Counted from the first letter of the stretch, positions 2,270 through 57,560 are shown. The stretch: 64,000 nucleotides of DNA from Gekko japonicus (GCF_001447785.1 NW_015164190.1:640877-704876); one strand, 5' to 3'. Notes: generated from the sequence alone by a model not told the origin. Made by a program: numbers and translations.

Positions 2270-2419
2270 NNNNNNNNNNNNNNNNNNNNNNNNNNNNNNN
2301 NNNNNNNNNNNNNNNNNNNNNNNNNNNNNNNNNNNNNNNNNNNNNNNNNNNNNNNNNNNNNNNNNNNNNNNNNNNNNNNNNNNNNNNNNNNNNNNNNNNN
2401 NNNNNNNNNNNNNNNNNNN
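2270..2419. other. Assembly gap (150 N)
   Basis: Run of N. Confidence 1.
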
Positions 2420-5856: not shown

Positions 5857-6899
5857 TCTCTAAGAAACCCTCTGAAATAGTTGTGACTATAATATTGCTG
5901 CATTAAAAACTGCATAATGAGCATTGAAATGTTCTGTATGATGGCAGTTACCTTCAGCATTCTTCCTGTTGCCAGCATTGCTTCCCTTCCTAGGGAATCT
6001 GTCACAAGAAAAAATTCAAGCACTTCACTCAAGTTAAACTGTTTTTTGCAGAATTGTTAACATAGTTTGCTGAAGCCTGCATAAGCACATGCCTACTTGG
6101 CTGAGCTTTTCCTTAAGCTGACATGGGAGAATATGGCTGGCAAGGCCTCTTTAATTGAATAAACTTTAATTGCTAGGTGCATACATGAAGTGTCAGAAAT
6201 TAGTGTGGAAATACTATCCCACTTGCAGAGTTATACATTTTTAACCTTTACCTGGACTTTGCTAGCAACACAGAATTTCTGTGGTTCAGTTGTCCCTAAT
6301 CACACTTCACAAATGAATTTGCATCTAATAGGGTTCAGGATCTAAAAATCTTGTAACCTTGGTTGAAGTTCATGCTCCCTGTAAATGTAGTGCTTGGTTT
6401 TGCTTCAAAGTATCTCAGCAATGCTTTTGAGAGGAGGGTTGCAGGGAAGAACAGAAGTTCTTCACTGCTCATCCTCTGAAGAAAATTTCACAGTCGTGCA
6501 GGTAAAACTTGTTTTTCCCACCTAGCAGTAATGGTTGAATTGGTAACAATACTTTATAGAAGTGTTCGTAATACTTGTATTAACAGCGGCTGACAGTCCT
6601 TATCTGTGCACAGTGAGGTTAGAGGCAAAGTTCTGCAACTAATGCTGAGTTTTCTATTACTTTCAGTATTTTAGTGTACTTTAAAGTACTAAAATTCAGT
6701 CTGTACCACTTCTTTGTTAATTATGCCTGAGTACTGAAAACCCTACATCTATAGTACTTTTGCAAATCTGTACTTGTTCTGGTCAATCTCGAAATTATAA
6801 ATGTGGTGTTAATTAATGCTAGATGGTTTCTTTCTCTGGGGAGGGGTTCAAAAAACCACAAAACCTAACAAATTCCATTTTTTTTCAGTTCCTGCCAGA

Positions 6900-7005
6900 A
6901 TGTCATCCGGAAATGCTTATATTGGTAAGCCGGCCCCTGACTTCCAGGCCACAGCTGTAATGCCTGATGGACAATTCAAAGAAATCAAGCTCTCAGACTA
7001 CAAAG
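6900..7005 (+). CDS. PRDX1: Peroxiredoxin-1 coding exon 1
   Basis: [35 protein letters not shown]; acceptor at 6888, donor gtaaat. Confidence 0.96.
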
Positions 7006-7557
7006 GTAAATGTATTAAAAATTGTTGGATTTGTGGGCAGGGGATTGCAAAATAGAGGGATTGCAAAATAGAAGCAGTGTGATGTTCTACATGTAAAATC
7101 CTAATGCCACTTGTACTGAAAACATGATCCTGAAATGGAACAGCTTTCCGGCATATAGAATATGAAAATATAAGTGTGTTGCAAAAAGAACCGTTTGCAT
7201 ACTATGTTACGTTACGTTGCTGTATTGCAAAATTTCTATCGTGACTGGAGTATAGTCTTGGGATTTGTTTCATTTTGCTGTAACCCAGTTGTAATAAGGA
7301 TTTTGAAATACAGCAAGCTACTTAATGTAGCTTGCAAAAGATTGCTTTTGTGACACTGATTAGTTTTCTCATTCTAGAATAGTTACATTTCAAGAACAAG
7401 AATCATGGACCTGAATAAATGAATTCTTTCTCATAGGCTAGCAAACTGCGTTGGTAACATGTAACTGTCAGTTACTGCCCATAGAAACATGTATTAGTTA
7501 TCTGTGGGCCAGCTTCTTTGTCTGGTTACTAAGAAGCCTTTGAATCATCGGGGGCCT

Positions 7558-7930: not shown

Positions 7931-8784
7931 ACTTCAGTTACCAACAAATAAGCAGCACCAACTTCTCATTGACTTATTTGCAGGCTAGAGCCTCTAACAT
8001 CTTAGATTCCTGAAAGCAGTGTCTCTCCTCCCTGTCTGATCTTTGTGCCCCACTTACAAACATTGTTCTTTTCTGCTGGATGAGAGATTTCTTTTGTCAT
8101 TATCTTCTCTCCTATATTTCCTTCAGCATCTCTGATTAGCTGTGCTTGGCAGGCTGAACAAGGAGGACTGTAGTCCAAAAGCTGTAGATCAAATCAAATG
8201 AATAAATAAGTGGTAAAGGGCTTTGCTTCTCCTGTGTTCAGCCTACTGTGGACTGCAAGCAGGCAGAACAACAGTATGTTGAGATACAGCAAATGAACCA
8301 AGCTTTCACACCCCCAACTCAGAGCATTATGAAGGCAAAGTGGAAGCTGGGGAAGCATTCCCAAGACATTAGTACTGAATGCAGATTGGCTGGGCCAGAT
8401 ACATCCTTCAAGTTGCTAGGCTATCAGTGGAACAGACAAAGACCTGGCTGTCTTATCAGTGGGACAGACAAAGGATCTGGCCCAGAAATAGCTTCCCTGG
8501 TGCTTAGGCCCAGCAAGGGCAGGTGTTCACCACCCCCTAGAGGCTTTCTAAGTGCTTATGGAGCACATGCTGGTTCTTTAGCTGAACCATATGCCACTTC
8601 TGCCAGTTTAGTGACATGTAGCTTTTGTTTGTAACATATGGGTATTCAGCTGGATTGAGTACAACAGAATGTCCCAAAGGACAGGCTACTGATCTTTAGA
8701 TTTTATATTTTTTTATTTCTAAACTCTGAGGCTGTTGTTGCTTTACTTTATGCAAAAATACTAACTTGGTTACTTTTTCCTTAG

Positions 8785-8938
8785 GCAAATATGTTGTGCT
8801 GTTTTTCTATCCGCTTGATTTCACCTTTGTTTGTCCAACTGAGATTATTGCATTCAGTGACAGATCTGAGGAGTTTCGGAAAATAAACTGTGAAGTGATT
8901 GGAGCTTCTGTCGACTCCCACTTCTGCCACCTTGCCTG
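8785..8938 (+). CDS. PRDX1: Peroxiredoxin-1 coding exon 2 (peroxidatic Cys)
   Basis: [52 protein letters not shown]; ttag / gtaag. Confidence 0.97.
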
Positions 8939-9985
8939 GTAAGAGGAGTCCTTGGGTTACAAGCTTTGTTTCTTCTCTGCAGGTCCTCCCAAACCTTACA
9001 GAGACAGAAGTAGCTGCTGCCAAGGAGTAATTTAATCTGAAGTTTTTGTTTTGGTCCAGTCTAGGAATAAGTTTTTACTAGTGACAAAATACTTCGTGGC
9101 TTACAGAGGCTTGGTTCTCATAGTTAATAGTCATAAGATATCCATCTGTTACAGTCTTGTCACATGAGAAAATAGATCAGCGAGTCTCTGAAGACTAGAG
9201 CTAATGGAACATGGTGGGATCTATTTCCTCAGTGTCTGTTTCATCATTGTTAATAACTGTGAGCTCCTGTGGTTCCTTCTCAGAGAGGCCCCCCCTTGCT
9301 CGTTTTCTTCTCCACAGTCTCTGCTTTCCTTTCCCTCCTGTCTCCCATTCTCTTGTTTCCCCCCTGCCTCTCTCTCTCTTGTTCCTCCTTCCTTTTTTCC
9401 AAGTTGCCTTGAGTTTCAAAATAAACCTGGCAGCCATTTCAAATTTTTGTTGGCAACCACAGACAATGGTGATGTTATTAGTTGATTAGGCATTCCAAAA
9501 TGACTTTGAAGATCTAGTGAGGTGATCTTCTAAAAGTTTGGATTTATCTCCTCCAATAAAAAATTAAGATTTTTCTACAGACCTGGGGGTTACCCCAGAT
9601 TTGTAGAAACATCTCCCTGATTGCTACATTGCCTCCATTTTGCAGAGTTTCTGATTTGCAGTCTGGCACCACCACGTTCAGAATTAAGATACAAGAGTGC
9701 TATAGGATTGGATCACTGGGTAGCTGCTCTTGTGTCACTCCAGCAGTGTAAGAAACATATTAAAGGCATTTTCATGTCATTCTGGAAATTGGAGTGACTT
9801 TTCTTAGGTTAATGCTCTCTAACGTCTAAATTGCAAAAAATGACTAAACAGCAGAAGTTGCACATATATACTTAAGTAATTATCTTACTGTGCTGCATTT
9901 GAAATTAATGATATTCCTATGACCTCTCCTTAATTTCCTGAAATATGATGTGGTTTTCTAAAATCCCTTTTTGCTACCTTTACAG

Positions 9986-10108
9986 GATCAACACTCCTAA
10001 GAAGCAAGGTGGCCTGGGTAGTATGCACATTCCCTTGGTATCTGACACAAAGCGTGTGATTGCTAAAGATTATGGAATACTAAAAGAAGATGAAGGCATT
10101 TCTTACAG
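9986..10108 (+). CDS. PRDX1: Peroxiredoxin-1 coding exon 3
   Basis: [41 protein letters not shown]; tacag / gtaaag. Confidence 0.97.
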
Positions 10109-11048
10109 GTAAAGCTAAAATTACACCCTCTAAGTGACTTGCTTAGAGAGCATGGTATGATGACAAGCAGCATCCCTCTTATGCCATTGTGATTCTCAAT
10201 ATTTTTTTCTTAGTAACTTTGTTAAATGTTTTCTTGTGGTGTTTTGGGAAGAAGAGCTTTGAAGTCCTGTGCATGTTTCCTTTCTTCACGGTAAAACATA
10301 GTGCAAGAATATATGAAACTGTATCTGGGACTTCCTAGAACCAGTAATGAGTCTAAAAGAGGGAAACAAGAAAGGTTCAGAAAGATCCTAGCTAAGTAAG
10401 TCTAGTAATGAATGTATTTGTACTACTACTGATACATAGAAGAAGGGTTTAGGGCATGTACAGTCCAAAAGCTCTATTTAAAAATTATTCCCGTATGAAG
10501 TTAAGGCCTTGGCAATTATCATTGTTTTGCTCTACTGAAGTGAAAGGACATTGCTTTACACTTAATCTTGTGTACAGATATTTGCCAGAAATGCATTGAT
10601 CTGATACTGATAGGAAGATTTTTCTGTAAGGTACATGAATAAGGTGTTATATGACATTCTTATAAGTAATTTTCTTTGGTCTGACTGTGTTTTATATTAT
10701 AAAATCTTAACTCTGCACCAGTTACAACTTTAACTTTATTCTGATGGACTGAATTTATGATATAATCCGTTATAACTAAGTCTGCAGCACAGGACATTGT
10801 CTGTTCTGCCATCACCCCACTTAACTTTTGAGTTTTTTGCTATTAAATATGTTCTGTGTTTTATGACAAGAATTACAAATTATGCTGTATGTAGTCTTAC
10901 ATTTCTTGGTTTTTAGAATGAGAATTATATGCTACAACTTGACAGATCAGAACTGAAAACACTGTTAACTATTGGGGTACAAATACTAAGTTGTAGTGTT
11001 GGAAATGGTTTTTTAAAAATTTCTGATTTGTGCTCATCTTTCCTTAAG

Positions 11049-24879: not shown

Positions 24880-25530
24880 ATACCATCAAGCCTCATGAAG
24901 CCAAGATAACCAGTATCAGGGATTGGCCCTGACCTGTTACCAAGAAAAATGTGCAGGCCTTCTTAGGCCTCACAGGTTTCTATTGGTGTTTCATTGCCCA
25001 TTTCACTCAACCTGCTTCACCTTTCTTAGATCTGTGCAAAAAGAAGGCGCCCACGAGTGTTTTCTGGAAACCTGAGCGTCGACATGCCTTTGAAATTTTG
25101 AAACAGAGACTGTCTCAAGCACCTATCTTGGTTCCAACAGATTATGACAAGCCCTTTGTGGCCCAAACCGATGCTTCTTCCAGAGGCCTTGGTGCAGTTT
25201 TGTTGCAGAGGGGGGAATGGATGTTGAACTTCACCCTATTGTTTATTTGAGCAGGAAATTGGTGCCATGAGAACTGGCTTACGCTACAGTAGAGAAAGAA
25301 TGTCTGGGGATTGTGTGGGCCCTCAACAAGCTGAAACCTACTCTGTGTGGCATCAACTTTTCTAGGAAACTGATCATAACCCTTTGTCTTTCATCCATAG
25401 AATGAAAGGAAATAACACTTGAGTGTTGAGGTGGGCCTTAAGCCTGCAAGATTTCAGCGTTGAGATTACTGACACTAAAGGTAGCCAGAATGTGGTAGTA
25501 GACAGCCTGTCACGTATGGGGAGTAAGTAA
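24880..25530 (+). mobile_element. Gypsy LTR retrotransposon pol relic (RT thumb and RNase H)
   Basis: VQAFLGLTGFY, QTDASSRGLGAVLLQ, YATVEKECLGIVWAL, TDHNPL, KGSQNVVVDSLSR*; frameshifted. Confidence 0.85.
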
Positions 25531-25966: not shown

Positions 25967-26013
25967 AGTTGTGGTGAGCTTCAACCATGATAATACCATG
26001 GATTTCAGCTTCC

Positions 26014-26340
26014 AGAAAAGGGGGGGCATGAGGCAATTTCCCTCAAAGGTTAATGTGATTATTTGAGGGCCTAGTCCGGCTTGCAGGTGTTCATGATTTG
26101 GGCTTTCCTGCATATACCATTCTTATCTCTTCCAAGACCAGACTTAAGAATGCGGTAATTGGTTAATCGTGAAAACCTGTACTCAGTTGTTTAACCAGAT
26201 GGGAGGGGAGAATTAGGAGCAGATGTTAACATCTTCTAGAAAGTTTCATCAAGAGAGATTCTTGATCGGATCCAAGAGACCACCTGGTGCCAGTGGGCCA
26301 AAAGCTATAATAAGGGTATAAGCCAAAGGGAAACCATGCT
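26014..26340 (+). mobile_element. Polypurine tract and probable start of the 3' LTR of the Gypsy relic
   Basis: AGAAAAGGGGGGG at 26014-26026 followed by TG at 26029. Confidence 0.5.
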
Positions 26341-26349
26341 AACTTCTAG

Positions 26350-26471
26350 CGTCCTGGCCCCACTGATGGACCTCCTGATGGTATCTGGTATTTTTGGCCA
26401 CTGTGTGACAGAGTGTTGGACTGGATGGGCCATTAGCCTGATCCAACATTGGCTTCTCTTATGTTCTTATG
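26350..26471 (+). mobile_element. CR1 LINE 3' end
   Basis: ggccactgtgtgacagagtgttggactggatgggcc..gatccaaca..(ttcttatg)n tail. Confidence 0.75.
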
Positions 26472-26924
26472 CTTATGCCATGCTAGTATGTTTTGATATG
26501 TTATGCTTCATCATGAGGGACTGCAGTGTATAGAATGCTGTTAGGCTATTCCTTGGATTTTATGCTGCAAGAAGATTTGCCATCTAGTACCAGGTATTCA
26601 GTGTATTCGATAGAACAGTTCACTTTTTTATTTTATCTGTTGCTAAGCTATAGAGATTGTACTGCATAGTGAAACTTTTAAAAAATCCTTTAATAAACCT
26701 TTATATATTTTAAAGGTATGTTTTATTGGGGCTGGGTACTGCTTGAGGGACGAGGAACAATAACAACCCAGTGGGACCCAGGCTTGAGTTCTGGACAGAG
26801 AGCATCTTGCATTAGGAGAAGGCACCATCAACTGGTGGAAATGCACAGGCACTGACTGAACAAAATGATATCATAGAACCAATTATGCCAATGTATGCTG
26901 TGGCAAAAAGTAGCAGAGAAAGAC

Positions 26925-27095
26925 TCATAAGAACATAAGAGCCCTGCTGGATCAGACTAGTGGTCCATATAGTCCAGTATCCTGTCTCATGCAGTGGGCA
27001 ACCAGTTCCTTTGGAGGTCCAACAACGGGGCATAGAGGCTGAGGCTTTCCCCTGAAGTGGCCTCCTGGCACTGGCATTCAGAGGTTTACTGTCTC
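26925..27095 (-). mobile_element. CR1 LINE 3' end
   Basis: cataagaacataagagccctgctggatcagac..tccatatagtccag. Confidence 0.7.
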
Positions 27096-27303
27096 TGTTA
27101 GGAAACAATCCCAAGCGAAAGTTCTTAGAAAGCTGGAGTATTCTGAATAAGGCTTCTCTAGAGTTCCTTACAGTTATCCTGTGGGACATTCTCTGCATCC
27201 TGAAGCTAACGCTATACTTCAGTGCTGAAGTGTATGTGAAACAAAAGACAGCATTCACATTTGTAAAGATGAGCAAAGACTCTAAGCACAGAATTTCAGA
27301 AGA

Positions 27304-27309
27304 TTTATT
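27304..27309 (-). terminator. Candidate SELENOP2 poly(A) signal AATAAA
   Basis: First minus-strand AATAAA noticed downstream of the SECIS. Confidence 0.45.
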
Positions 27310-27628
27310 TCTGCTAGGATATTTTTTACCACTTTTTTTCCATTTCAGCACTCAGTAAATCACCACTTTTACCCAGGCCTGCCCTCAACTCTTTCTACTG
27401 GGCTATGTGCATCGTCTATAGAAATAAATACTTTACCCCCCATACTGCCTAAACTTGGCTAATTCCATGTCACCAACTTCAATCTATGTGTGGATCTCAG
27501 TGTACAAAGCTTTGAGCTCCAGGCACAAAGCCAGCTTTGCTCTTATTTCATTCTTTCATATGCTAACAGTTAGTCATCCACTTGCCAATACTGGTTTCTG
27601 ATCCTGTCCATCTAGTTCCTTTGACATA

Positions 27629-27704
27629 CTTTTCTATACAGTGTCAGCCTGCAGTGACTGGAGTACTCTAGTTTACACTGCATACTTCATTGAGTGCAGA
27701 AAAG
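27629..27704 (-). promoter_or_regulatory. SECIS element (type II-like) in the SELENOP2 3'UTR
   Basis: Minus RNA: CUUUUCUGCAC-UCA-AUGAA-GUAUGCAGUG-U-AAA-CUAGAGUACUCCAG-U-CACUGCAGGC-UGAC-ACU-GUAUAGAAAAG; helix I, AUGA/GA core, 10-bp helix II and apical AAA. Confidence 0.9.
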
Positions 27705-28313
27705 CAGGAAATGTGAAAGGGAACCAAGCCTGGCTTCCCAGCAGGCAGAAACCATGACACTTCTGTGACCTGAATAAGGCAAGATGGTCACTGTCACCAC
27801 AGGCAAAGTGGAGAATAAAAATTGCTTGATATTTGTGCTCCAGAACAATAACACTGTTGGCTTTGTAAAACACAGTTTTTTATATAAAGCTACATCCATA
27901 CATCATTGGATATTGTATGCTGATTGCACTGTCCATAAAGGAAAATCCAGTTGTGAATTATTGCTATAGCACAGCAATAGCACAATATCCAGTGATATGT
28001 GCCTGAAGCCCAAGTGTAATCAGAGACCAGTTCAAAATGAGAAGTCAGATTGCATCAAGTACATGCAGTTAGACTTATGGTGGTGCATGCCACATAACAA
28101 AAAGCCATGTTATAAGAAGAGTCTTAAGAGCTTGTGTTGATTTAGGAAGGGAATAGAAAATTCAGTATCCTTGCTGCTCTGAATACTGAATGATCACGAT
28201 GCTTTCTTCTGAAACAAGTAGGTTTGACCCACGGTTTAAAAAAATAGGCCCCCCCCATTTAAACTGAAGCTATCTGCCTCACAGTTATATCTTGCCAACA
28301 CAAAAGCAAATTT

Positions 28314-28565
28314 TTAAGATTCTGCTTCCTGCTGCTTCTGCAGCTGGCTCTGAGACTGGGGAACTGACTGGTGTGTACTGGCCAGATCCAAGGCCCTGTG
28401 GCTGCTGCTCACTGAAGGATGAGAAAAGTGATGGGCTGTGTGCTCTGTAGAGTTGGGTGCCTCTTTGCTCTTCCCATTATGCCTGTGACTGGAAACTTCC
28501 TGGTTCTTTTCACTGTGTCTGGAAGCCTCAGTCGTCATCATACTAGTCTCTGCTGTGCTACTTAT
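28314..28565 (-). CDS. SELENOP2: Selenoprotein P2 last coding exon (Ser/His/Gln-rich tail)
   Basis: ttttcacag acceptor in phase 0; ISSTAETS...HTAHHFSHPS...QQEAES* (TAA). Confidence 0.8.
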   Translation of the reverse strand: MSSTAETSMMTTEASRHSEKNQEVSSHRHNGKSKEAPNSTEHTAHHFSHPSVSSSHRALDLASTHQSVPQSQSQLQKQQEAES

Positions 28566-29050
28566 CTGTGAAAACAACATCAAGTTCTGGTTCATTATAC
28601 CAATGGACTTAAGGTGAAAATAGATATCTGGCAGTTTGATGCAAGGGGTCTGAATAGGCATTATCTGCATCTTTTGTTTTTAGGGCAGAAAATTCATGTC
28701 CATTTAAAATGTGACATCTGTCTGTGTAACATGAGTCTAAATGATAATTTCAGATGGTTCAGATGCTTTGCAGTATCCCAGCATCATTTTTAGCTTGCTG
28801 GAACAGAGGCTGGGAAAGAGGCATCATATTGTTCCAATTTTCTTCACAGTAAACTAGCACAGAGACCCATGGAACAAGGATATGCAGTCCTCCTTCTACC
28901 CTCTGCACCTCACTGTAAGGGGAATGCAAGAAGAAATCTTACATAAATCCTGTCAGAGGATCAGGCTGGACCAATGTCCAGAGAATGAAGAAGCTTCATC
29001 AAATGAGCAAGTGTCTGGCTTGAAGAGGGAGCAAGAGCTCAAATTCCTAC

Positions 29051-29189
29051 CTCTTGGTTGCTATTAGAATGGTACCAGGAACAATTGCCACAGTAGTCCT
29101 TGTGGTACGTGTGGTGTACAGCAGCTTCAACATAAGGGAAGTGCAGGAAACTGTATGGCAGCTGGATGTGGAAAGTCAGCTTGCTGCAC
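29051..29189 (-). CDS. SELENOP2: Selenoprotein P2 coding exon 3
   Basis: CSKLTFHIQLPYSFLHFPYVEAAVHHTYHKDYCGNCSWYHSNSNQE; tttatag / gtagga. Confidence 0.93.
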
Positions 29190-30586
29190 CTATAAAGTCC
29201 AGGAGTAATGGAGGGGAGAAAATACAGAATTGGTGTCAGGATCCATTCATACCAGGAATGACTCTGGTCTGGTCTAAATTGGCCTTCTGTTTTCTATAAA
29301 GTCAGAAAAGAATAAGAAAAAAATTGCCTAGTAAAGACAGTGAGTTGGTTGGAGAGTTCCAAAATAACATAAGGAGCACATTCATCTTTTGGCCCCTCAG
29401 TTCAAAAGCTAAAGTATTCAAGTTTAATTATGCTGCTTCACTTCCCAGTGTTCAAGCTGCCCCAGTGTGTGCTGCATAATATAACGCAGACACACCATCT
29501 CCACATTTTTTCCTAGATAGCTCCACAAACAGCCAAAGTTCAAGGCCCTCTGGTGCACATGATGTCTGGAAAAGAAAGCAACAACAAGCAGCTTTACACA
29601 ATTCTCAAGCCCTTGGGAGAGGTTAGGCAGGATGCTAATAAGCTATGGAGTCCAACAGAGGAAGAAAATGGCAAGGTACAGGCTGGCCATCCCCGAGTCT
29701 GTCGAGCCATCTTTACATTCATGTAGATGGAAGAGCACCTACTGAGTTAGGCTACACGCATCCATCATGAATAAAGACAAATAAGGCAGTTTGGAGACAT
29801 TGCTGGACATAAGACAGTTTGAAGGCATTATTGGCTGGGAAGTTCATGTTGCTGTGCCTCTTTGGCAGTTCGTGTTGATGTGCAGTCCTGATGAAGGGAT
29901 TGAAAATTTATTGACTAATCTGGAGGATGAGTTGACTGCAGCTTATTTCTTATTGTTTGTCTCAAATCCTAAGTAAGAAGTGGATGTACTTGCTTTATGG
30001 ACATTTGAAGATCATGTTTTTCAGTCCATTGGAATTGGAATTTGTGAAGTCTTTCTTTAGGGAGTGTTAAAAAGTTAGATATTACTTTAAATCCCCAGCC
30101 TATCTATGGTATTTCTTGTATTTCATGCATTGAATGCTATTGTATATTTGAAAAATATTTGAAGCTTTATTTGATGTTAAGTCATACAAGATTTATATTT
30201 ATTCATCTATTTCCTTAAATTATTGTTAGGATACAGACCAGAGATTTAGACTGGTACTTTAGATCCTATATTGAGGAATTTGGGGTTCCAATCCCCACCA
30301 TGTACTACAATTCTCATAGCTCACTCCCTTCTCTGTCTGCATGCTGCGTTAGTTGCTTTTCACATAGAAGCAAGTACAGGTTTAAGCAATTCCTTGGAGA
30401 CCCATCTTGTCTTGATGAGTTATAGGAGTTTGTAACCCTGCAAACTGCCTTGCATATTACCTCGATGGTTCACAGCCCTTTAAGATATCCAGAGCTTGGT
30501 CTCTTCTAAGGAGAGATGCATAAAAATTGTCCCTTCTCCATGCCCTTGCTATAAAGACAGCAGGAGAAATGTGTTTAAGCACTGAC

Positions 30587-30799
30587 CTGTCATAGATCAG
30601 GAAGTCATCCTTGTCCCCATGTAGAATTTGCCAGACGTCAGGTTCCAAGATCTCCTGCTGGTAAACAGGAATTCCCTCTGGAGCATGCCGCTTGAGCTCC
30701 CAATACATTGCCCGGGAAAAAGGAGTCTTCTCATTCACAATCATGAAGCTTATATTGACCATCCCTTTATGGGACAGCTTCTTCTGCAAGCTGCCAAGG
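30587..30799 (-). CDS. SELENOP2: Selenoprotein P2 coding exon 2
   Basis: LGSLQKKLSHKGMVNISFMIVNEK...IPVYQQ...DVWQILHGDKDDFLIYDR; ttaccag / gtcagt. Confidence 0.95.
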
Positions 30800-31413
30800 C
30801 TGGTAATAGGAAGCAGCAAGAAAATTTAGGAAATGATGGAGAGAAACTCACCCCTCCCTCTGCATACACTCAAGACAGGCAGGCTCACAAGCTCAACTAT
30901 CTGGCAAAAGCCAGAGGTCTTACCCTCATTTTAAACCCACTGAGTTGGCATTTATAGCGTCCAGTTCTGCACAGCTCTAGTTGCATGCAATATTAGAATA
31001 TGTGTAAATTCTAATTCAGGAGCAAAATTACATCCATCTTGTGTATGTGTATTGTATCTGGCCAACTGTAGCTAATGTTTGTTTGCAACCTCAGATCTGG
31101 AGTTCACTAGAGGGGGACCTGGCAACTCCAGCCAGGGATAGAAGTAAATGTAGCTCTTTTGCTTGATGGAAATTGTGAATGTGGCTCTCCACAAGCCATG
31201 GAGTGAGTACCACTGTCTTAGAATGTCTCAAAAGGGCTATGGAGGACTGATTCAATTCAGTATTTTACGGCAGACAGTCTAGTCCTTCCTGATCCAAATT
31301 AATGATTCTAGGTTCACCATGATGTTAGTGAATTCTGACACATATGTGATACTACGTCTTGCGCCTATTGACAGCCCCAGGGACAGGTGGTCTTCTCCAT
31401 GTAGTGAACTCAC

Positions 31414-31628
31414 CTGGCAGCTTGCTTGAGACAGAACTGTCAGCTTGCTTTTAACAGGGCCACTACTGTCACTTGGCCCTCCACCCCATCCATTGGGACT
31501 GTCCCATTGATCTTCCAGAGTGGTGCAGGCTGGCATATTTGGCTCCTGTTCTCAGCCACATCTGCCAGTGTGGCAGTAATCACCAATCCCACCAGGAAGG
31601 TTGTTGTGGCTAGGGCAGGACAGCCCAT
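31414..31628 (-). CDS. SELENOP2: Selenoprotein P2 coding exon 1 with Sec codon (TGA 31440-31442)
   Basis: MGCPALATTTFLVGLVITATLA..CQPAPLWKING..GQVTVVALLKAS-U-QFCLKQAA; exon starts at 31648 after tcctag; donor gtgagt. Confidence 0.94.
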
Positions 31629-34262: not shown

Positions 34263-34336
34263 AGTAACTGGCTGTTAGCAGAATTTATTTACCTGTTTAT
34301 ACCAAACCACTTGTATTGGGTTAGTAAAGCGTGGTT

Positions 34337-34765
34337 AAGAACATAAGAGACGCCAATGTTGGATCAGGCCAAAGGCCCATCCAGTCCAACACTCTGTGTC
34401 ACACAGTGGCCATAAATACCAGGTGCCATCAGGAGGTCCACCAGTGGGGCCAGGACACTAGAAGCCCTCCCACTGTTGACCCCCCCCAAGCACCAAGAAG
34501 ACAGAGCATCACTTGCCCCAGAGCCCCTATCTATACCTTGTGGCTAGTAGCCACTGATGGACCTCTGCTCCATATGCTTATCTAATTCCCTTTTGAAGCC
34601 GTCCATGCTTGTAGCCACCACCACTTCCTGTGGCAGTGAATTCCATGGGTTAATCACTCTTTGGGTGAAGAAGTACTTCCTTTTATCTGTTCTAACCCGA
34701 CCGCTCAGCAATTTCATGGAGTGCCCACGAGTTCTTGTATTGTGAGAAAGGGAGAAAAGTACCTC
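34337..34765 (-). mobile_element. CR1 LINE 3' fragment
   Basis: aagaacataagaga..gttggatcaggcc..catccagtccaacactctgtgtcac; ggcagtgaattccatgggttaat..gtgaagaagtacttcc. Confidence 0.8.
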
Positions 34766-43339: not shown

Positions 43340-44210
43340 TCTTTGAAGCACGAGGACTACGGTCCTAGCATGTTCATCTGATCTAAACCCTTGATTTACA
43401 ACGATAATTACAGCATGCCTGGTACGTGTGTTCCTGAGGGACGACTAGATAAATGTCCCTCCCCCCGCATATCTGACTGGATGTCTTGAAGCTCCTCCTT
43501 GAGATTCAAGTCAGAGGCGGGAGGAGGAGTTCTGCGCCTGCTTGCTGGAGCCGATGATAAAGCCCACCACCGGCATCAGAAATCCGAGACAAAGAGAAAC
43601 GGCTTGAGGCAAGTTATGAAGGGGAAAGGGACGGGTGGGCCTGGGGAGTTGGAAATGGTCAGGTAGCGACTGATGAGCAGGCCCAGAACGAGAATGAGAG
43701 AAAGTGTGGTGGTAATGCTGAATTCATGGACTACATTTCCCATCAGCCCCTGCTGCTTGACAGTGACCTTCAGAAACAGTTGCCTTTATCCAGAGACTAG
43801 AAACGAGGACGGAAGGGGAAAAAGGAGAACACAGAAGAGGGATTGAGCGTGTTCGAAAGAGTTCAAATTAAAAAAGCATTAACCCCCAAGCAGATTGAAA
43901 GAAAAATGTAGGCTGACGCGACTGATTGTANNNNNNNNNNNNNNNNNNNNNNNNNNNNNNNNNNNNNNNNNNNTGACTGCAAATCTGCTGCTGCAGCCGG
44001 TGTCTAGTTAAAGCAGTCTTGAGGACTGCAAGGTACTCACCCCGTTTAAAGACCGGTCATTGTTAATCCGGTATTTTTAGCCCTCTTTAGACAAAATACC
44101 TGCGTAGAAGCCATAGTGTTTAAACGAGGAACGGATGAAACAGGCTTGCTTTGCTCTACACTGGGCCGAAGAGCTCATAGAAGCCACACGTGAGGTCGGC
44201 TTCTGACTAG
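43340..44210 (+). promoter_or_regulatory. CpG-enriched promoter with ZNF143/Staf SBS motifs, probable HPDL promoter and 5' non-coding exon
   Basis: ACTACATTTCCCATCAGCCC at 43730-43749, variant ACTACGGTCCTAGCATG at 43356-43372, candidate donor tag/gtatgt after 44210. Confidence 0.55.
43931..43973. other. Assembly gap (43 N)
   Basis: Run of N. Confidence 1.
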
Positions 44211-45124: not shown

Positions 45125-45580
45125 TCCGTGTAAATGTAGATAAAGGTCAGACCTCCTTGTTACTCCTATTGGATTTATCTGCTCCCTTTGATACAGTGGA
45201 CCATGTCATTTTGTTGAGGCACCTGGAGGCAGAAGCAGACATCAGGGGTTGTGTGTTGAACTGGTTCAAATAATTCCTCATGGACTGGACCCAAAGAATT
45301 GCCATGGGAGACCAGTTATTGTCAGTATGGAACCCATCCTGTGAGGTCCCACAGAGTGCAATCCTATCCCCCACACTCTTCACTCTTTATGTAAAGCCCT
45401 TAGGCCAAATTATTTGTAGTTTTGGGGTTGGCTGTCATCAATATGCAGATGATACACAGCTATATATATATATCCTTATCCAAATATCCTGGGGATACAG
45501 TACAGGCCCTAAATTGCTGCCTGGCTGCTGTGGTTTAATAGCTCAGAGCGAACAAATTGAGACGAAACACTAGAAGGACA
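45125..45580 (+). mobile_element. L2-clade RT fragment
   Basis: LLLLDLSAPFDTVDH, VPQSAILSPTLF, CHQYADDTQLY. Confidence 0.8.
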
Positions 45581-46420: not shown

Positions 46421-47693
46421 GAAAATCAGAGCCTGGCTGAAAATTTTCTAATGTTGTAGGGCTCAGGGACACCCCCCCAAACCCCCCCACCCCAACAAAA
46501 CAGATCTGATGACTGCCTCCTTGAGCATGGGTGGCTCAACTCCCACTCTTAAGAAAGCATTTACCACTCCCCTTACCCACTCAGCCAGTTCCCCCTCTGG
46601 CAGCTGTTATCAGCCAGGAAGGGCAAGGGTCAACAACACAATGGGTAGGTCTCACCTGTCCAAGGTTCTTACCTGTATCCTTGGGGTCCACAAGCTGAAA
46701 GGTGTCCATATAAATCATATTTTTTGAAGCAGTTGTGATAGTTTCAGTAGTATTTCTCTCTCTATTTTAACAATTCTGTAACCCACTTAAATAGTATATG
46801 TTACTGCAGATGTTCCAGTGTAACCAGGGATAGGTGTATCTTGAGGGTCATCTTACTAGTGTTGATTTGGAAACCAAAGGCTATTAATAAATAAATGCTT
46901 GTAAAATCAGAGGACTAGAAATAGAACTGTATCATCTGCATACTGTCCTAGTTTATGCTGGTGTTATCCAGTAATTGCATTTATGTTATTTTGGCTGATA
47001 ATATTAGCAATACATAAGTGCAAGTAATACAGGAGTCTTTTCTTTGTGCCCTAATTATTCTGAAAATATAGGGGGGAAAGCCATTAACTGAGATGTAGGC
47101 TTGTAAAGTGGAATGTAGCACATTGCAAGTTCTACAAAAATTGGGTCCAGATTCAATCATTTTTGTTAGGTGGTCAAGAATGGCCATTTTTGCATTTTGA
47201 TTGATTAAAGATATTAATTAGGACTGGCTGAATCTTTTGCTGGCTTTGAGATAGTGATAATTGCTCTTCAGTTTCTGACATATGTATAAGACAGTTGAGA
47301 GGAATGGTAAAACAAAGACTACAAAGTGTCTTTTAGCTCAGGAAGTGCAGACCTACAAGTTCCCTTTTATTGATGGCTGCTTATGTCTAAAAATCCAGCA
47401 GCAGTTGGCTTGATCCTGTGCCATACAACCGAAGTGCTGGATTATGTAGGTGAATATTTTAATTGGCCAACTGCTCCACTCTCCTCGACCAGCTCTAGAT
47501 TCCTTTGGCTTTTTGATAACATGGAACGAGAAGAGGAGGCGCTAGAGTTTTTCCTTTCTCCTCCTGTCCTATGAAAGCTGGGACACTTCTCCTAGCTATC
47601 TGACCCTGCTGTCTAACCACTGAGTTTGCTTTATTTTTCTGTAGATCTCACAGAAAGCCTGTGTTTCAGCCCACTGCCTTTTCCAACTGCGTT

Positions 47694-48893
47694 ATGTCTG
47701 TGAAGCAGTTGTGCTACATTGGTTTCCATGCTCCTGAGAAACAGCAGCTGGCCAAGAACCTGGTACAAAAGTTTGGCTTTGAACTCTTTGCTGCACGGGT
47801 GACAGCATGGAGCAAGCAGTTGGCCTTAAGAAGAGGCGCTGCCGTCTTTGTTGTCAATGAGAGGCTGAAGGCAGCGAGAGAAGTTCCACTTATTTTCTCC
47901 TCTGGTCCCTGCAAAGATCAAGGAATCCTGTATGACGTGGATCTGCAGTATGTAGTCAGCACAGCTTCTAACATTTGTTTTGAGATAGAGAATGTACCTG
48001 GCATCTCCCAGAGCCTTCAGGAACAAGGTTGCCAGATCCTTATCCCTCCTACTAATGTAGCAGATGAGGGTGGTTGTGTCACTTATGCAGTGGTGAGATC
48101 CATTGTGGGTAACATCAGTCACACTCTGCTTGACCGATCACGGTATTGTGGACCTTTCCTGCCTGGCTTTCATGGTGTAAAGAGTGCCTCGGAAAACTTT
48201 AGTGAAGCTAGGGAGGTCACACATTTTGACCACATCACCTATGCTTGTCTCCCAGGTAGTTCTCTAGCAGTACTGGACTGGTACAAGAACTGTTTTGGTT
48301 TCCAGCGCTTCTCTGTCCACCACCAAGATGCTGCTGCTGAAGGTTACAGTATCCAGGGAGCTGGCATGGGCCTTCGTCTTACTGCCATGCATTGCAATGG
48401 GAGTGGCTTGACTCAGCTAGACCGTGACTGTAAGCTTGTTCTTGCTGAGTCGTTGCCACAGCAAAGGAAGAACCAGGTAGATACTTTCTTAGAGCAGCAT
48501 GGAGGGGCTGGCATCCAACATGTGGCACTCTACACCACTGATATCGTAAGAACTGCTGCCGCCATGGCAAAGGCTGGTGCAAACTTTGTAGAACCACCCT
48601 TAACCTACTACAGTGAGAAAGGGAGGGAGAAAGAGATACAGCAAGTTGGGCAGGATCCTCATCTTCTGGAACACTACGGCATCCTCCTGGATTCCGAGGT
48701 AGCTGGGGAAGGAAGCAACATCAGTCCTGGCCTTCATGGTAAACAATACCTGATGCAGATATTCACTAAACCTCTCTTTGCAGAGGACACATTCTTCCTA
48801 GAGCTCATAGAACGATGTGGGGCTGTAGGTTTCGGTGAGAGAAACATCCGTGCTCTCTGGAAAGCAGTGCAGAACTACATGGACAAGCAATAG
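47694..48893 (+). CDS. HPDL: 4-hydroxyphenylpyruvate dioxygenase-like protein, 399 aa, single coding exon
   Basis: N-terminus QLCYIGFH..KFGF..QLALRRGAAVFVVNE; iron-binding FDHIT / GIQHVAL / FLELIER; C-terminal GFGERNIRALW; tail-to-tail with MUTYH as in human. Confidence 0.96.
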   Translation: MSVKQLCYIGFHAPEKQQLAKNLVQKFGFELFAARVTAWSKQLALRRGAAVFVVNERLKAAREVPLIFSSGPCKDQGILYDVDLQYVVSTASNICFEIENVPGISQSLQEQGCQILIPPTNVADEGGCVTYAVVRSIVGNISHTLLDRSRYCGPFLPGFHGVKSASENFSEAREVTHFDHITYACLPGSSLAVLDWYKNCFGFQRFSVHHQDAAAEGYSIQGAGMGLRLTAMHCNGSGLTQLDRDCKLVLAESLPQQRKNQVDTFLEQHGGAGIQHVALYTTDIVRTAAAMAKAGANFVEPPLTYYSEKGREKEIQQVGQDPHLLEHYGILLDSEVAGEGSNISPGLHGKQYLMQIFTKPLFAEDTFFLELIERCGAVGFGERNIRALWKAVQNYMDKQ

Positions 48894-51255: not shown

Positions 51256-51631
51256 CTGAAAAAAGCAAGACACCTCACATGACATGCAAAGCATCTCTAG
51301 CACCATAGTTAAGTAGATAGTTGGATACTAGTTCCTCCATCCTGGGAGTAGGCTATTGGCAGCTTTCATAGAAACTTAGCTGTATCAAATGCCCCCAGAC
51401 AGCTTGCTTGAGGCACAAAGACAGTGAGATAGAGAAAACAGAGTTCCTGGAAGAGGGTATCTCTTGTCATTTAGCCAGGTACTACCACACTCCTGGTAGT
51501 AGTGAACAGTTGTTCCTTTTCAGTTTTCAGTGGCTAACATTTCTTGTTGTTGCTACATTTTTAGTACTCTGGAGAAAAGAACTTGGATCTAGTGGGAAAT
51601 GTGAAGTAGCTGATGCCTAGATTCTCAGTAC

Positions 51632-51793
51632 CTTCTTCATGGCAGTGGAAACAGCTGAATTCTGGAATTTCACTTTGGTCACCCATTTGCATGGTGGCAA
51701 TGTGGCTTCCATTTTGCAATTTCCTTCATACTTGTCCAGGTTCAAAAAGTAGATTGTGTATGTTTGGCGAATGTGGGAGAACATATGAAGAAC
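51632..51793 (-). CDS. MUTYH: MUTYH exon (FSH loop)
   Basis: VLHMFSHIRQTY...CKWVTKVKFQNSAVSTAMKK. Confidence 0.92.
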
Positions 51794-52451
51794 CTACAGA
51801 TGACAGCAAGATTTGCATGTGAGGGCAGGGAAGGAAAAAGATCCATGGCTCAATAGCGCCTTCTTCATCTCTTGGCAGGCAGGCAGACCTTCAGAGGCTG
51901 AACAGTCAGGGTTTGAATAGAAAGGAACCGCTGGGCTTCTCCTTAACTGTCAGTCACCACTGCTTTCAGATAAGGACATAAGGAGATGGTATCATATGAC
52001 CCCCAAGGCCTATGGCAAGGTAAGGATAATCTCAGAGGTGAATGGCTGGAACCTCAAGACTTATCTTACCTGACCCCTCTGTACTATGACAAGATCTTTT
52101 TAATCTGTTCCTTTTAGGTTCTGATTCATACAGTGTTTAGGGAACAAATTTCCTTACTGAATAAAGCCACCTGCAACTATCCACCAGTCAGTTATAAAGC
52201 AACTGTTCTTTCCACAGGTATTATAAAAACAGCTCATACACTGCACATGTCCTGATACCTTGCTAAGAGGCTAACTGGCAACAGAGCCTCTGCTGCTACC
52301 TGCCCCCTGCCACTGGTGGGTTGTAAATACTATGTACTACAGGGGTGGGAAGAGGAGGGTTTGTTGTGAGATGTGGTTAAACAATGGCCAGTCAACACTA
52401 TTGACAATGCCCAAAATACTTAGCACAAGTCTTGTGTAGGGTCTGATTTAC

Positions 52452-52594
52452 CTCTCCAACATGCTGCAAGCGTCCCACAGCCACTTCACTGCCAACCCAT
52501 GCGCGAAGGTGATTGGCCACTGTTGCTTTTTGCTGCTTCTCCTGCCCTGGGCCAAGGAGGAGGCTAGGAAACTCCCACAGCCCTGCCAGCAGAC
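52452..52594 (-). CDS. MUTYH: MUTYH exon
   Basis: GLLAGLWEFPS...LQHVGE. Confidence 0.94.
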
Positions 52595-53403
52595 CTGTGA
52601 GAAAAGGCACAGCTCCATCATCAGCACAAACTGATACAACATCGCTTTTAAAGGCTTGGTCTGGAAATCTCTGGTTCAATCTCAGCCTTGGTATGAACAG
52701 TGCCCTCAAATAAAACTACCTGCTCTTAACTTTGGCTAAAATAAAGACTACTGTAAAAATTCTTGCGATAAGGTATGGTAGAATAACTTTTGGCACTTAA
52801 GGAAAGCAATACATAAACAGTGAAGTATTTATTGTTCTACTGAAACACAGCTTTCCCCTTATCAGGCAGACAAGATATTCAGAAAACAATGCTTCCATAG
52901 TAACAGTGCTGCTCCCAAGGCTGGCGTTTGCATCAGGGCTGAGTGCTCTCTGCTGGCTAGTGCAGGAGAAACAGACCGTGCCTTAAATAATTCAGTTTGC
53001 TTCCTTTCATTTTAGCTGCAACATGAACTTTGCAATTGCTGTCTCAGAAAGATCAGGTTGCCTATCCCACAGGGTATATTAACTTAGGATGGACAGGACC
53101 CAGCTCTGACATACAGACATCCAAGTTCTTCAAGCTCTTGCTCAAAATCACCACTGTGCTTCAACTTACAAGTGGCTGCCTCAGCCAAATCAAATGGTTC
53201 AATGGCCTTTGCTGGCAAAGTCAATTGCCCCCATACAAGCAACCCTTCTTTGCAATGCAGTTTCTGACCCAAAAGGATATACTGTGGTTTGATAAAAGAT
53301 AAGACAACATCCAAGTTTGCCTTAAGAGTATGGGGAACGAAGATTGTAAAAGTGACTTCAGACTTATTCTTTCTCATTCCCTGCCCACTTATGAGCTAGT
53401 TAC

Positions 53404-53595
53404 CTGTGCTGGGTCTCTGTACAATAAGGTACTCTGGCTTGTCTTCATGGCATTTCCTCTGTAGCACACATGTAGCCGTTCTCTCTATCCTGGGCTGTTT
53501 CTTGGAAGCTTTCCTGGGGAAGTTGGTCACACCAAGACTACGGTCCCACAGCTCTGAAGGAGGCAGGCAAAGGGAGCAACTTCCTGTGAGGTTGG
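53404..53595 (-). CDS. MUTYH: MUTYH exon
   Basis: [32 protein letters not shown]...YLIVQRPST. Confidence 0.93.
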
Positions 53596-53759
53596 CTGCA
53601 GATCAGAAGAATGGAGCAGGTAAGATGCTTGGTTCTGGAGTCTTAGCAAAAACCCAGTGATTTCAGACCTACTCTATAGTAGCAGAGGAGTTTAAGCCAG
53701 GAAAGTTTGGCAATACAAACCAGAATTCATCTGACACTGCCTAGCCCATGGTGCCTGAC

Positions 53760-56457
53760 CCCCCCTCCGACATTGGTGCTGTGTGCAACGCCAGGTCTAT
53801 AAATAATAAGGCCATGGTCCTTCGGGAACAGAAGGTAGACTAGGCGTGTGTGACTGATACCTAGGTGTACGACTGGGAAACCGTAGCTCTCTCCCAGCTT
53901 GCCCCTCCTGGGTTCTCGGTCCTACACCAATCATGGACTAGGGGGCAGGGGGGAGGAGTGGCTATTTTCATTCGGGAGGTTTACTCCTTCAGGGCGCTCC
54001 CATCGTTGGAGATCATGGGCATTGAGTGTGTCGGCCTGGTGTGGGAGGCCAGGGAGAGTGTGGCGATTTGGCTGGTGTACCAACCACCTAACACACCGGC
54101 CAACAGCCTGCCGTCCCTGATGGAGGCCATATCAGGCTGGGCGCTGGAACACCCTAGGCTAATAGTCCTGGGTGACTTCAATGTCCATGCCAATGACGTG
54201 GCTTCCATTCAGGCAGCGCACCTAGTGTCGTCCATGGCAGCACTGGGACTCTCCCGATTTATAACGACCCCCACTCACCGAGCTGGGCACACGCTTGATT
54301 TGATCTTCATGGTGGGGGTAACAGTGGACTGGATTACTGCTTTGGCAGTACAATGCCCTGAGGGCCCGTCTGAATGTTGCACCCCAATCCTGTTTAGGCA
54401 GCAAGCGAATTTTAGCTTGCCCACGGAGCCAAATGGACCCAGTGCGGCTCCAGATGGCCCTGCGGGATCTGATGCCCCCTGGTGGCTCGTTGGATGAGCT
54501 TGTAGACGACTGGCACAGTTGGCTCTCTGCAGCCATCAATGAGATTGCTCCCCAACACCCTCTGCGCCCTCGCTCTAGGCTTGCTCCCTGGTTTACCCAG
54601 GAGCTGCGGCTTATGAAGCGAGAGCTGAGACAGTTAGAGAGATGGTGGCGCCGTGCTCAAGACAAAGCTACAAGAGCATCTTATAGGATGTTTATGAGAT
54701 CATATGAGATGGCAGTCAAAGCTGCTTAGAGAGAGTTCTATGCGGCTACGATTGCGTCTGAGAGCTTACGCCCAGCCCAATTGTTTAGAACAATTCAGCT
54801 TATAACAGCTCTGCCATAGGGCAGACTAAAAGCTAGGGAATTGGATATTGGCTGTGAGGCATTTGCGAGCTATTTCGCGGATAAAGTCTTGGTGCTCCGC
54901 CGCGACCTCCCCGCCACAGTTGAAGCAGTGAGTGAACTTGAGGCCCCTTGCGCGTCTTCCATTCCGGCTTTGGATTATTTCAGCCCACTCAGCCTGGAGG
55001 AAGTCGACAGATTGCTCGCAGCTGTATGCCCAACCACATGCAGCCTTGATCCGTGCCCTTCCTGGCTCATTAAAGCGGGCCATGAGGGGTTTCAAGGTGC
55101 CCTAAGGGAGATTATCAACAAGTCCCTCTCTGAGGGGCGGTTCCTGGGGGCACTCAAGGAAGTGATGATCCGCCTTGCAATGGCTTGTCTCCTTTCTCCA
55201 AGGTCGGGGACAAAGGGTGGCCATTGGGGAGCAGCGGTCCCAAAAGCACCCACTAGTGTGCCCCAAGGGGCTGTGCTCTCCCCGATGTTACTTAACATCT
55301 ATATGCGCCCCCTTGCCCAGATTGCCCGGAGGCATGGGCTGGTCTGTCACCAATATGCGGATGACACCTAGCTCTATCTGATGTTGGGCGGTCAGTCTGA
55401 CTCTACCCCGGAAGATCTGGACCGGGCGTTGCAGGATGTGGCTGGATGGCTTAGATTGAGTCGATTGAAACTGAACCCGACGAAGACAGAGGTCCTGTGC
55501 CTGAATCGGAGCGGTACGGGGGTAGGGATCCCACTCCCAGCCTTTGGTGGGGTGCCACTGGTGCCAGCTCCGAGGGGCAGGAGTTTGGGAGTACTCCTGG
55601 ATGCTTCTTTAACAATGGAGGCCCAGGCAGCAGCTGCTGCCAAGGCAGCCTTTTACCATCTTCGGCTGATTAGGCAGTTGGTTCCCTTCCTCAAACGCAA
55701 TGATCTGGCTGCAGTGATCCATGCTATGGTCACCTCGAGGTTGGACTACTGCAGTGCTCTCTACATGGGGCTGCCCTTGGTGCAACTCCGGAAGCTGCAG
55801 CTGGTGCAGAATGCGGCGGCCAGGCTGTTGATAAGTCTCCCCAGGTGGGAGCACATCCAGCCTGTGCTTAAGACTCTGCACTGGCTCCCAATAGCATTCC
55901 GGATTCGTTTCAAGGTTCTGGTTTTGACCTTTAAAGCCCTTTATGGTCAGGGACTGGCCTACCTGAGGGACTGCCTTTCCTGTATGTTCCCCAGAGAGCA
56001 CTGCGATCAGGATCCCAAAACCGCCTGGACCTCCCTGGCCCAAAGGAAGTCAGGTTGATGGCAACCAGGACTAGGGCTTTCTCGTTTGTAGCTCCGTCCT
56101 ATTGGAACGAGCTTCCTGCCGAGATCAGGGCCCTGTGGGACTTGTCACAGTTCCGCAGGGCCGTGAAAACAGAACTTTTTAGGCAGGCGTTCCGCTAGGA
56201 GTGGCATCCTACCAGCAGTGCCCTGTGTGAACTCCGATCCAACACGACCTAGTGCGATGGCACCGCTGAATGTGTCCCTAAACTGCAATTTATTTTTATC
56301 TATCACCATCGAATGAATGTTTTATATTGACCTGTCTATGTTTTTAAATGATGTATTTTATGCTATTACTGTAAAATGTATACTGCTTATCAGTTTTTGG
56401 AAGCTGCCCTGAGCCCGCCTGGCGGGGAGGGCGGGGTAGAAGTGAAATAAATAAATC
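53760..56457 (+). mobile_element. Degenerate L2-clade LINE (APE endonuclease plus RT ORF2, 3'UTR), antisense in a MUTYH intron
   Basis: LIVLGDFNVH, PTHRAGHTLDL, VPQGAVLSP, HQYADDT, LKLNPTKTE, HWLPI; stops and frameshifts; (TAAA)n tail. Confidence 0.9.
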
Positions 56458-57204
56458 AGTATATTGATGGCACCTCATTTTACAGTTGCAGACTCTCTCA
56501 TCCAAACACCACACCAAACTGTTCAGTGCTAATATTGACTGTGGTGGAATAGCAAAGAGTTGTTCCCAATGAATGGCAGTTCCCCCCCCCCCCCCCAGCC
56601 CACCCTTTTTGAATGAAAGGAAAACACAAAAAAGTTTGAGAATGAATGGCAAAAACCAAATTAGAGCCAGATCAAAGCCATCTCTCCTACACCTACAGTT
56701 TTGTTAATCCACCCTAGGAGAATCTGGCAGCTCATAGCACTGCATGCTGCTGAGAAGTCTAGGAAAATCTCTTCTCCATTTCCAAATGCTGGTAGTCCAG
56801 AAGGGCCATCGAGGGGTTCTTGGCTCCAAGATCAGGTTGAAATGTACATTCAATCCAGTCAAGTGAGATTTACGCATGCAGGATTCCTGGAGCTTGGAGG
56901 CCATTACATAATCTATTTTATACTAGAAACAGAAGATTGGCCTATAGTTAGCGGGGTCATCTGAACAGAAGGATCACTTTATCAGAAGGATCTGGGTTTG
57001 TTGGTTACAGGTGTGGTTCTTCCCCTTCCTATAAATCAAGTATGCTGAATAAAGAAAGGGCAGTGGGTGTAAGGGAAAAGAACATAAGAAGTGTGTTTGG
57101 AGTGGTGAGCTGTTGGGGTTTTTCCCCACCTTGAAAAAACTTTGAAAGAATGCAACCCTATATTCCAAAAAAGCCCTCCTGAAGGGCCAAACCTCAGCAC
57201 TTAC

Positions 57205-57292
57205 CACATTCTTCTACATCCAGCACCCAGGAACTCTTGGAGGCAGATCTTCCTGTCAGTCTCTTGGCAGAGTCTTCCAGCTCCTTCTCTAC
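57205..57292 (-). CDS. MUTYH: MUTYH exon
   Basis: VEKELEDSAKRLTGRSASKSSWVLDVEEC. Confidence 0.9.
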
Positions 57293-57339
57293 CTGCAGAA
57301 GAGAAGGTGTCAGTCTGTGACTGCCCAGAGGTGTGTGTC

Positions 57340-57560
57340 TATTAATTTGCTACATTATTAGTCTGCCCTTCCTTCAATGAGCTCAGGGTGGGGTACATCA
57401 TTTCTGCTTTCCTCCATTTAAGCTCACAACCTTGTGAGGTAGGTTAGGCAAAGAGAGAGAGGCAGAGAGAGAGAGACTCTTAGTGAGCTTTGTGGCAGAG
57501 CAGGGACTTGAACCTGGTTCTTCCAGATCCTAAGCTGGCATTCTAACCACTAAACTAAGT
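57340..57560 (-). mobile_element. Old Squam3-like SINE
   Basis: gagctcagggtggg..cacaaccttgtgaggtaggttaggc..gggacttgaacctgg..ctaaccacta. Confidence 0.55.

Follow-up and report, generated by a model that had tools for sequence, protein, structure and literature searches.

A SELENOP2 gene of Gekko japonicus with a very probably recoded UGA and a type II SECIS

A 64,000-nucleotide (nt) stretch of Gekko japonicus DNA (GCF_001447785.1 NW_015164190.1:640877-704876), here called the window and numbered from its first letter, holds on its minus strand a reading frame that meets a TGA at 31442-31440. Does this triplet end a truncated product, or does the frame run on as SELENOP2 (SelPb), a paralogue of the selenoprotein P gene SELENOP1, with the UGA recoded as selenocysteine (Sec, U)? 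The second answer was proposed in an earlier note on this DNA. Our analysis indicates that the locus is very probably a functional SELENOP2 orthologue, whose UGA would be recoded as Sec in conjunction with a Sec insertion sequence (SECIS) downstream of the stop codon.

Read on the minus strand from 31628 to 28314, the gene comprises four coding exons separated by GT-AG introns, and their 819 nt encode 272 amino acids.

31414..31628, minus strand: coding exon 1, with the ATG, a hydrophobic, signal-peptide-like N-terminus, the first strand of the thioredoxin fold and the UxxC motif
31440..31442, minus strand: predicted Sec codon (TGA, codon 63), the same column being Cys in sharks and frogs
30587..30799, minus strand: coding exon 2, SelP_N positions 47-116
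29051..29189, minus strand: coding exon 3, SelP_N positions 118-162, with a conserved CGNC at its end
28314..28565, minus strand: coding part of the last exon, an 83-residue, Ser/Thr-rich and moderately His-containing tail without Cys or Sec, then TAA

Each of the six junction coordinates (31414/30799, 30587/29189 and 29051/28565) falls on a GT donor or an AG acceptor, the first donor being GTGAGT, and these pairs are the only ones to keep the frame among the GT/AG combinations up to 4 nt away. Comparison with orthologous proteins likewise speaks for them as the probable junctions. The coding sequence (CDS) has a single internal TGA at codon 63, in the context LLKAS-U-QFC, which gives the motif U63-Q-F-C66; no further stop or frameshift occurs in the 272 codons, and the stop TAA occupies 28316-28314. 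From the UGA to the first coding junction the distance is exactly 26 nt, a spacing reported to be conserved in SELENOP genes (PMC5133445). When the exons were scanned one by one against Pfam, exons 1-3 matched consecutive positions (2-44, 47-116 and 118-162 of 234) of the SelP_N profile (PF04592), with E-values of 8e-13, 6e-26 and 6e-17, all past the curated cut-off; because the three exons are collinear on the profile, a chance match is ruled out. Exon 4 had no match in Pfam. It encodes a tail with nine His among its 83 residues, 26 Ser plus Thr, no Cys and no in-frame TGA. The three-junction, in-phase gene of 272 residues with TGA, UxxC and GTGAGT donor that the earlier note described therefore withstands the coordinate test, and the note was equally right about the five N-glycosylation sequons (N27, N41, N87, N178 and N227) and the absence of a Sec-rich C-terminus. 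Its "His-rich tail" holds in part: His is present, while "rich" overstates runs of at most two residues.

Two details at the ends of the model deserve comment. In SelP genes, four coding exons follow a first exon that is non-coding (PMC6301783), and here, 20 nt 5' of the ATG, there is an AG acceptor (31650-31649), with an in-frame TGA six codons upstream of the ATG; coding exon 1 is thus probably exon 2 of the gene. Within 6.3 kb, a search for the splice donor that such a non-coding exon would use returned one consensus-like site, at 34292, which we do not accept as evidence. HNF1-type sites number five in the window where 2.85 would be expected, and not one is near the 5' end of the gene. The most hydrophobic 15-residue window of the protein starts at residue 11, and secretion is predicted from this N-terminal stretch and from homology. 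At the other end, a second in-frame AG acceptor at 28610, which would start the last exon 45 nt further upstream, is employed by the database model of G. kuhli. We rejected it, as six other reptile proteins lack that insert or end there, and the acceptor chosen matches the proteins of Sphaerodactylus, Podarcis, Phrynocephalus, Crotalus and Alligator; a minor isoform using 28610 may exist.

The residue that orthologues carry at the TGA was read from a 69-row protein alignment. Cys occupies this column in all 6 sharks and in 19 of the 20 frogs, the twentieth having a gap, and C also stands there in Callorhinchus and Cirrhinus, possibly as U stored as C; most of the remaining rows are gapped or garbled at this point. 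A Sec-to-Cys conversion of SELENOP2 in sharks and frogs is reported in the accessible part of PMC13134290. Two rows carry other residues, Arg in the caecilian Geotrypetes (P0059) and Trp in the swordfish Xiphias (P0064), each a single base off TGA; these reflect either real Sec loss or an error of sequence or annotation.

Taken at face value, the database would let the TGA be a genuine premature stop, which would make the locus a pseudogene or the source of a 62-residue or N-terminally truncated product. Not one of 23 named non-avian reptile entries has a residue at the Sec position within an intact motif (a count that may be inflated if few U-bearing records surface in the protein collection), and the G. 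kuhli entry begins in exon 2, without signal peptide or active site and with a different last acceptor. The entries, however, break in many differing ways at this one spot: in the turtle Pelodiscus the codon is missing, and other models bypass it by splicing, begin downstream of it or shift frame. Such varied breakage is the published signature of Sec mis-annotation according to the accessible text of PMC12822975, which puts the share of well-annotated selenoprotein genes at 11% in Ensembl, 5% in GenBank and 77% in RefSeq. The Crotalus adamanteus model (P0049) is informative here, as it evades the UGA through a shifted frame of coding exon 1 and crosses the same first junction; the same frame is open in the window (31279-31536, minus strand). 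Deduced from that shifted frame, the rattlesnake codon at the Sec position can only be T-N-A, which excludes Cys and which TGA fits. With this codon, an otherwise uninterrupted frame and the SECIS described next all against it, a true stop is very improbable, and the internal UGA of the gecko gene is most likely read as Sec.

The gene reaches past the interval 28314..31628. A SECIS-shaped hairpin, 624 nt 3' of the stop codon at 27706-27627, is present and is a type II SECIS that the earlier note had missed; candidate poly(A) signals follow at 27309 and further downstream.

27627..27706, minus strand: type II SECIS, with helix I, the AUGAA/UGAC core, helix II, an AAA left unpaired and a small helix at the apex
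27304..27309, minus strand: first AATAAA 3' of the SECIS, a candidate poly(A) signal, with others at 26727, 26694 and 26632

In the core, AUGAA (27690-27686) lies opposite UGAC (27646-27643), and helix II forms 9 of 10 pairs between 27685-27676 and 27647-27656. A pattern scan of both strands of the 64 kb returned one match, this candidate, which lies outside any repeat common to the remainder of the window; in dinucleotide shuffles of the 1613-nt 3' region the pattern appeared in 0 of 300. A single SECIS of type 2 is what SelPb, with its single Sec, is described to have (PMC5133445). Several observations weigh against the assignment. The pattern was composed with the candidate already seen, so the shuffle control is optimistic; folding energy by itself is less striking (z ~ -2.1, with 4 of 200 shuffles equally stable); Rfam gave no match over the whole window at gathering thresholds and, for 26000-28320 at E <= 10, two chance matches and no SECIS; and the 3' core reads UGAC, as against KGAW in the accessible text of PMC3753652. 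The 3' flank also contains a short interspersed repeat at 27031-26926, beyond the first AATAAA, with copies at 26357-26471 and 34336-34450.

Which of the two paralogues the locus represents was addressed with a maximum-likelihood tree of 43 rows: the gecko protein, 29 named SELENOP2-side rows, 12 SELENOP1-side rows and one scorpion outgroup, many of the rows being partial or mis-annotated models. The SELENOP1-side rows were drawn from 20 of 150 listed representatives, 5 of the 20 being left out; four of the SELENOP1 rows bear independent labels (two fish SelP/SelPa and two eutherians), and the remaining eight are assigned by their position in the tree. The gecko protein is sister to that of Gekko kuhli (support 99/86), then joins Sphaerodactylus (99/97), and belongs to a nine-row squamate clade (100/99) within the 30-row SELENOP2 side (96/93). 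Forcing it to group with the 12 SELENOP1-side rows costs 94 log-likelihood units, with p = 1.9e-66 in the approximately unbiased (AU) test. BLAST agrees, with 154-356 bits to the 29 SELENOP2-side rows versus 102-134 bits to the 12 SELENOP1-side rows; for the two Phrynocephalus paralogues the scores are 213 and 132. Identity with the G. kuhli entry is 99/99 over residues 91-189 and 74/83 in the tail. Figure S22 of PMC13134290, whose clade labels are unreadable in its accessible form, also has squamates in two distinct parts of its SELENOP tree.

The locus resembles vertebrate SELENOP2 (SelPb, Sepp1b) in its one Sec within UxxC, its four coding exons, its intron at 26 nt, its MUTYH locus, its one type 2 SECIS and the absence of a Sec-rich C-terminus. 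The shark and frog genes are orthologues with the motif at the same position, but there it is CxxC in place of UxxC and therefore no recoding is needed. SELENOP1 has in common with the gecko gene the SelP_N thioredoxin-like domain, the first Sec in UxxC, the placement of the introns and, in the RNA, a stem 3' of the first UGA; it differs in its many Sec codons, its two SECIS elements and its ApoER2-binding C-terminal domain. An identity as SELENOP1, or as a truncated duplicate of that gene, has next to no chance, for although SelP_N, UxxC and the 26-nt spacing are common to both paralogues and would suit it, the tree and the AU test rule it out, and the higher BLAST scores to SELENOP2-side rows, the single SECIS match in the window, the lack of a multi-Sec C-terminal domain and the MUTYH neighborhood all speak against it. 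The assignment to SELENOP2 rather than SELENOP1 made by the earlier note is hence upheld, as are its expectation that the TGA would align with the Sec or Cys of orthologues and its warning that the gene is easily mis-annotated.

As to what the protein does, its fold offers the first indication. For a shark orthologue (P0031), which served as a proxy, AlphaFold gives a model with predicted local distance difference test scores of 94-98 over residues 31-170, followed by a low-confidence tail; the helix at 59-77, which comes after the first core strand (48-54), has C58xxC61 at its start. At E <= 0.001, thioredoxin-fold proteins made up 440 of the 500 matches counted in a Foldseek search with this model (best 9e-7), with DsbE/ResA-like proteins first (E 9e-7 to 2e-5), then peroxiredoxins and glutathione peroxidases. 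The proxy shares with these oxidoreductases the fold and the position of the redox motif; it differs from them in sequence, at 10-18% identity, so that the resemblance is one of fold only, and a PDB sequence search with the family profile gave no match at E <= 1. On these grounds, and by analogy with the mammalian protein, we take the likelier role to be that of a thiol-dependent oxidoreductase or lipid-hydroperoxide peroxidase, acting outside cells and probably produced by the liver. In mammalian SELENOP, to whose N-terminal part alone SELENOP2 corresponds, the N-terminal UxxC fragment reduces phospholipid hydroperoxide with several thiols, and the Sec-rich C-terminal part serves selenium delivery and ApoER2 binding (accessible part of the review PMC8193087). 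Detection of turkey SELENOP2 was confined to liver (PMC5708738, accessible part), and zebrafish selenop2 serves as a liver marker in a preprint on cachd1 that offers no synteny (bioRxiv 2022.05.16.492129, accessible part). With one selenium atom and a C-terminus that lacks a Sec-rich domain, the gecko protein would be a poor bulk selenium carrier, and catalysis is favored over transport because the selenium-free Cys forms keep CxxC. The earlier note's view of a redox enzyme and not a selenium transporter is thus a reasonable one.

Some points count against an enzymatic role or thin its basis. The predicted fold comes from the shark proxy, which is 48-66% identical to gecko exons 1-3. The literature on SELENOP2 function that we found consists of expression studies, with no enzymology or knockout. 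Lamprey SELENOP2 contains 139-162 UGAs (PMC13134290, accessible part), so that in some lineages this paralogue can act as a carrier. This bears on a rival reading that keeps the same gene and the same recoding and assigns the protein a main role as a minor selenium carrier or scavenger, with one selenium atom per molecule and recovery in kidney, or as a metal- or matrix-binding plasma protein acting through its tail. Besides the multi-Sec lamprey protein, this reading can draw on SELENOP2 being secreted and liver-expressed like SELENOP1 in birds, on the uptake of SELENOP by megalin in kidney (PMC8193087, accessible part) and on fish orthologues with strongly His-rich tails. The shark and frog Cys forms, however, are unable to carry selenium and have yet been retained, the gecko tail is modest in His, and the ApoER2-binding domain is absent; we regard such a role as unlikely, though with an appreciable chance of being correct. 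A thiol-disulfide oxidoreductase or isomerase acting on extracellular proteins, in place of a peroxidase, would accord with DsbE and ResA coming ahead of peroxiredoxins and glutathione peroxidases among the Foldseek matches of the shark model. Those E-values barely differ, though, at the low identities given above, and the paralogous domain has measured peroxidase activity, which leaves this alternative improbable without being negligible.

For the favored enzyme, a course of events can be proposed. The SECIS would bind SECISBP2, which would recruit eEFSec with Sec-tRNA, so that the UGA would be read as Sec, perhaps with greater efficiency owing to a hairpin 3' of the UGA. The product would enter the secretory route and be N-glycosylated, and would consist of a single thioredoxin-like domain, with UxxC opening the helix after the first core strand, and then a disordered tail. 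The Sec selenolate would be oxidized by substrate and resolved by Cys66 as a selenenylsulfide, and re-reduction may be by thioredoxin or small thiols, as in the mammalian SELENOP N-terminal fragment.

The hairpin emerged when the spliced mRNA was folded over the 60 nt that follow the UGA; this stretch was chosen because Sec codon redefinition elements (SREs) occupy that place in other selenoprotein genes. A perfect 11-bp stem was obtained, with its arms in different exons.

31415..31425, minus strand: 5' arm of the SRE1-like candidate hairpin, in the final part of coding exon 1, +15 to +25 nt past the UGA
30786..30796, minus strand: 3' arm of this hairpin, where coding exon 2 begins; the splice junction falls within the 4-nt loop

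Its energy is -26.3 kcal/mol when spliced versus -14.8 kcal/mol for the unspliced stretch. Among synonymous recodings with the peptide fixed, equally stable folds occurred in 0 of 5000 under uniform and 11 of 5000 under codon-weighted sampling, and stems of equal length in 1 and 2 of 5000, respectively. When 254 CDS windows were ranked by energy, the top nine all overlapped the hairpin. Statistical support for an SRE1-like hairpin is moderate. There is evidence on the other side as well: in a 26-window scan of the CDS the window at codon 141 (-15.4 kcal/mol) is similarly extreme (2/500 vs 3/500), so that without prior choice of the place the signal would be marginal. An indirect deduction of the snake hairpin, which takes the peptide to be the same in two snake species, retains 9 of the 11 pairs; both differences break pairs, and this two-species deduction yields no compensatory changes. 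The first CDS window gave no signal of an initiation stem-loop, 254 of 500 synonymous shuffles being equally stable. SELENOP1 has SRE1 at the same place, where it raises recoding by up to 50% (PMC5727441, accessible part); SelPb is unmentioned in the accessible main text of that paper, and no description of an SRE in SELENOP2 was found in the literature searched, which excluded one metazoan SELENOP paper cited by PMC13134290. We put forward, tentatively and as a possibility we rate rather low, that SELENOP2 mRNA has its own SRE1-like hairpin predating the SELENOP1/SELENOP2 duplication and that Sec insertion is coupled to splicing. The hairpin loop would sit on the junction 26 nt after the UGA, and the lower stem would overlap the would-be site of the exon junction complex; such coupling would explain the conserved intron position.

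The surroundings of the gene were searched with Pfam scans of 407 stop-to-stop frames of at least 55 amino acids and with PDB searches.

51599-62378, minus strand: MUTYH exons (HhH-GPD, HHH, Fe-S and NUDIX_4 pieces), upstream of SELENOP2 on the same strand
6813-7052, 8730-8939 and 9942-10109, plus strand: peroxiredoxin (PRDX1-like) exons, AhpC-TSA, with peroxiredoxin-1 as best PDB matches
47604-48890, plus strand: intronless 429-codon open reading frame, 4-hydroxyphenylpyruvate dioxygenase-like (E 4e-30), first ATG at 47694
24933-25247, plus strand: broken retroelement piece, reverse transcriptase RNase H-like (Pfam)
45274-45570, plus strand: broken reverse transcriptase piece (Pfam)
53865-56055, plus strand: broken endonuclease and reverse transcriptase of the long interspersed element type, in a MUTYH intron (Pfam)

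The 47604-48890 frame we take to be most likely HPDL. A sturgeon model (P0132) wrongly fuses MUTYH, SELENOP2 and ELOVL, and its first two parts keep their order and strand when mapped to the window; the gene order agrees with SELENOP2 orthology. The ELOVL elongase gene is a downstream neighbor that three fish models (P0123, P0132 and P0138) fuse to SELENOP2. For the first two of three queries, no trace of ELOVL appeared in the window among the matches listed (best E >3), and therefore this neighbor seems lost or moved in the gecko. The assembly has two gaps in the window (2270-2419 and 43931-43973, 193 N in all), both outside the SELENOP2 gene.

Reptile SELENOP2 with its single UGA and type 2 SECIS, and the problem of its mis-annotation, are already published. 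The readable part of the PMC13134290 supplement, outside which its genome table and sequence file lie, contains no gecko name; our search found no literature on selenoprotein Pb in lizards and nothing specific on gecko selenoproteins, and the tuatara is credited with 26 selenoprotein genes, SELENOP2 being unnamed there (PMC7116210, accessible part). The gene in the window is one already known in vertebrates, and the gecko copy is intact; it is an instance of ordinary biology that gene finders often miscall. The practical value is a corrected gene model, given that signal peptide and active site are both missing from the nearest entry, that of G. kuhli, while the role of SELENOP2 touches wider questions beyond geckos. 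Joint action of hairpin and intron at the first selenoprotein P UGA is a published idea, and a gene with a single UGA allows a simple test of it. If SELENOP2 does carry an SRE1-like hairpin of its own, then with one UGA and one SECIS it would be a clean test system for the published exon-junction hypothesis at the first SELENOP UGA.

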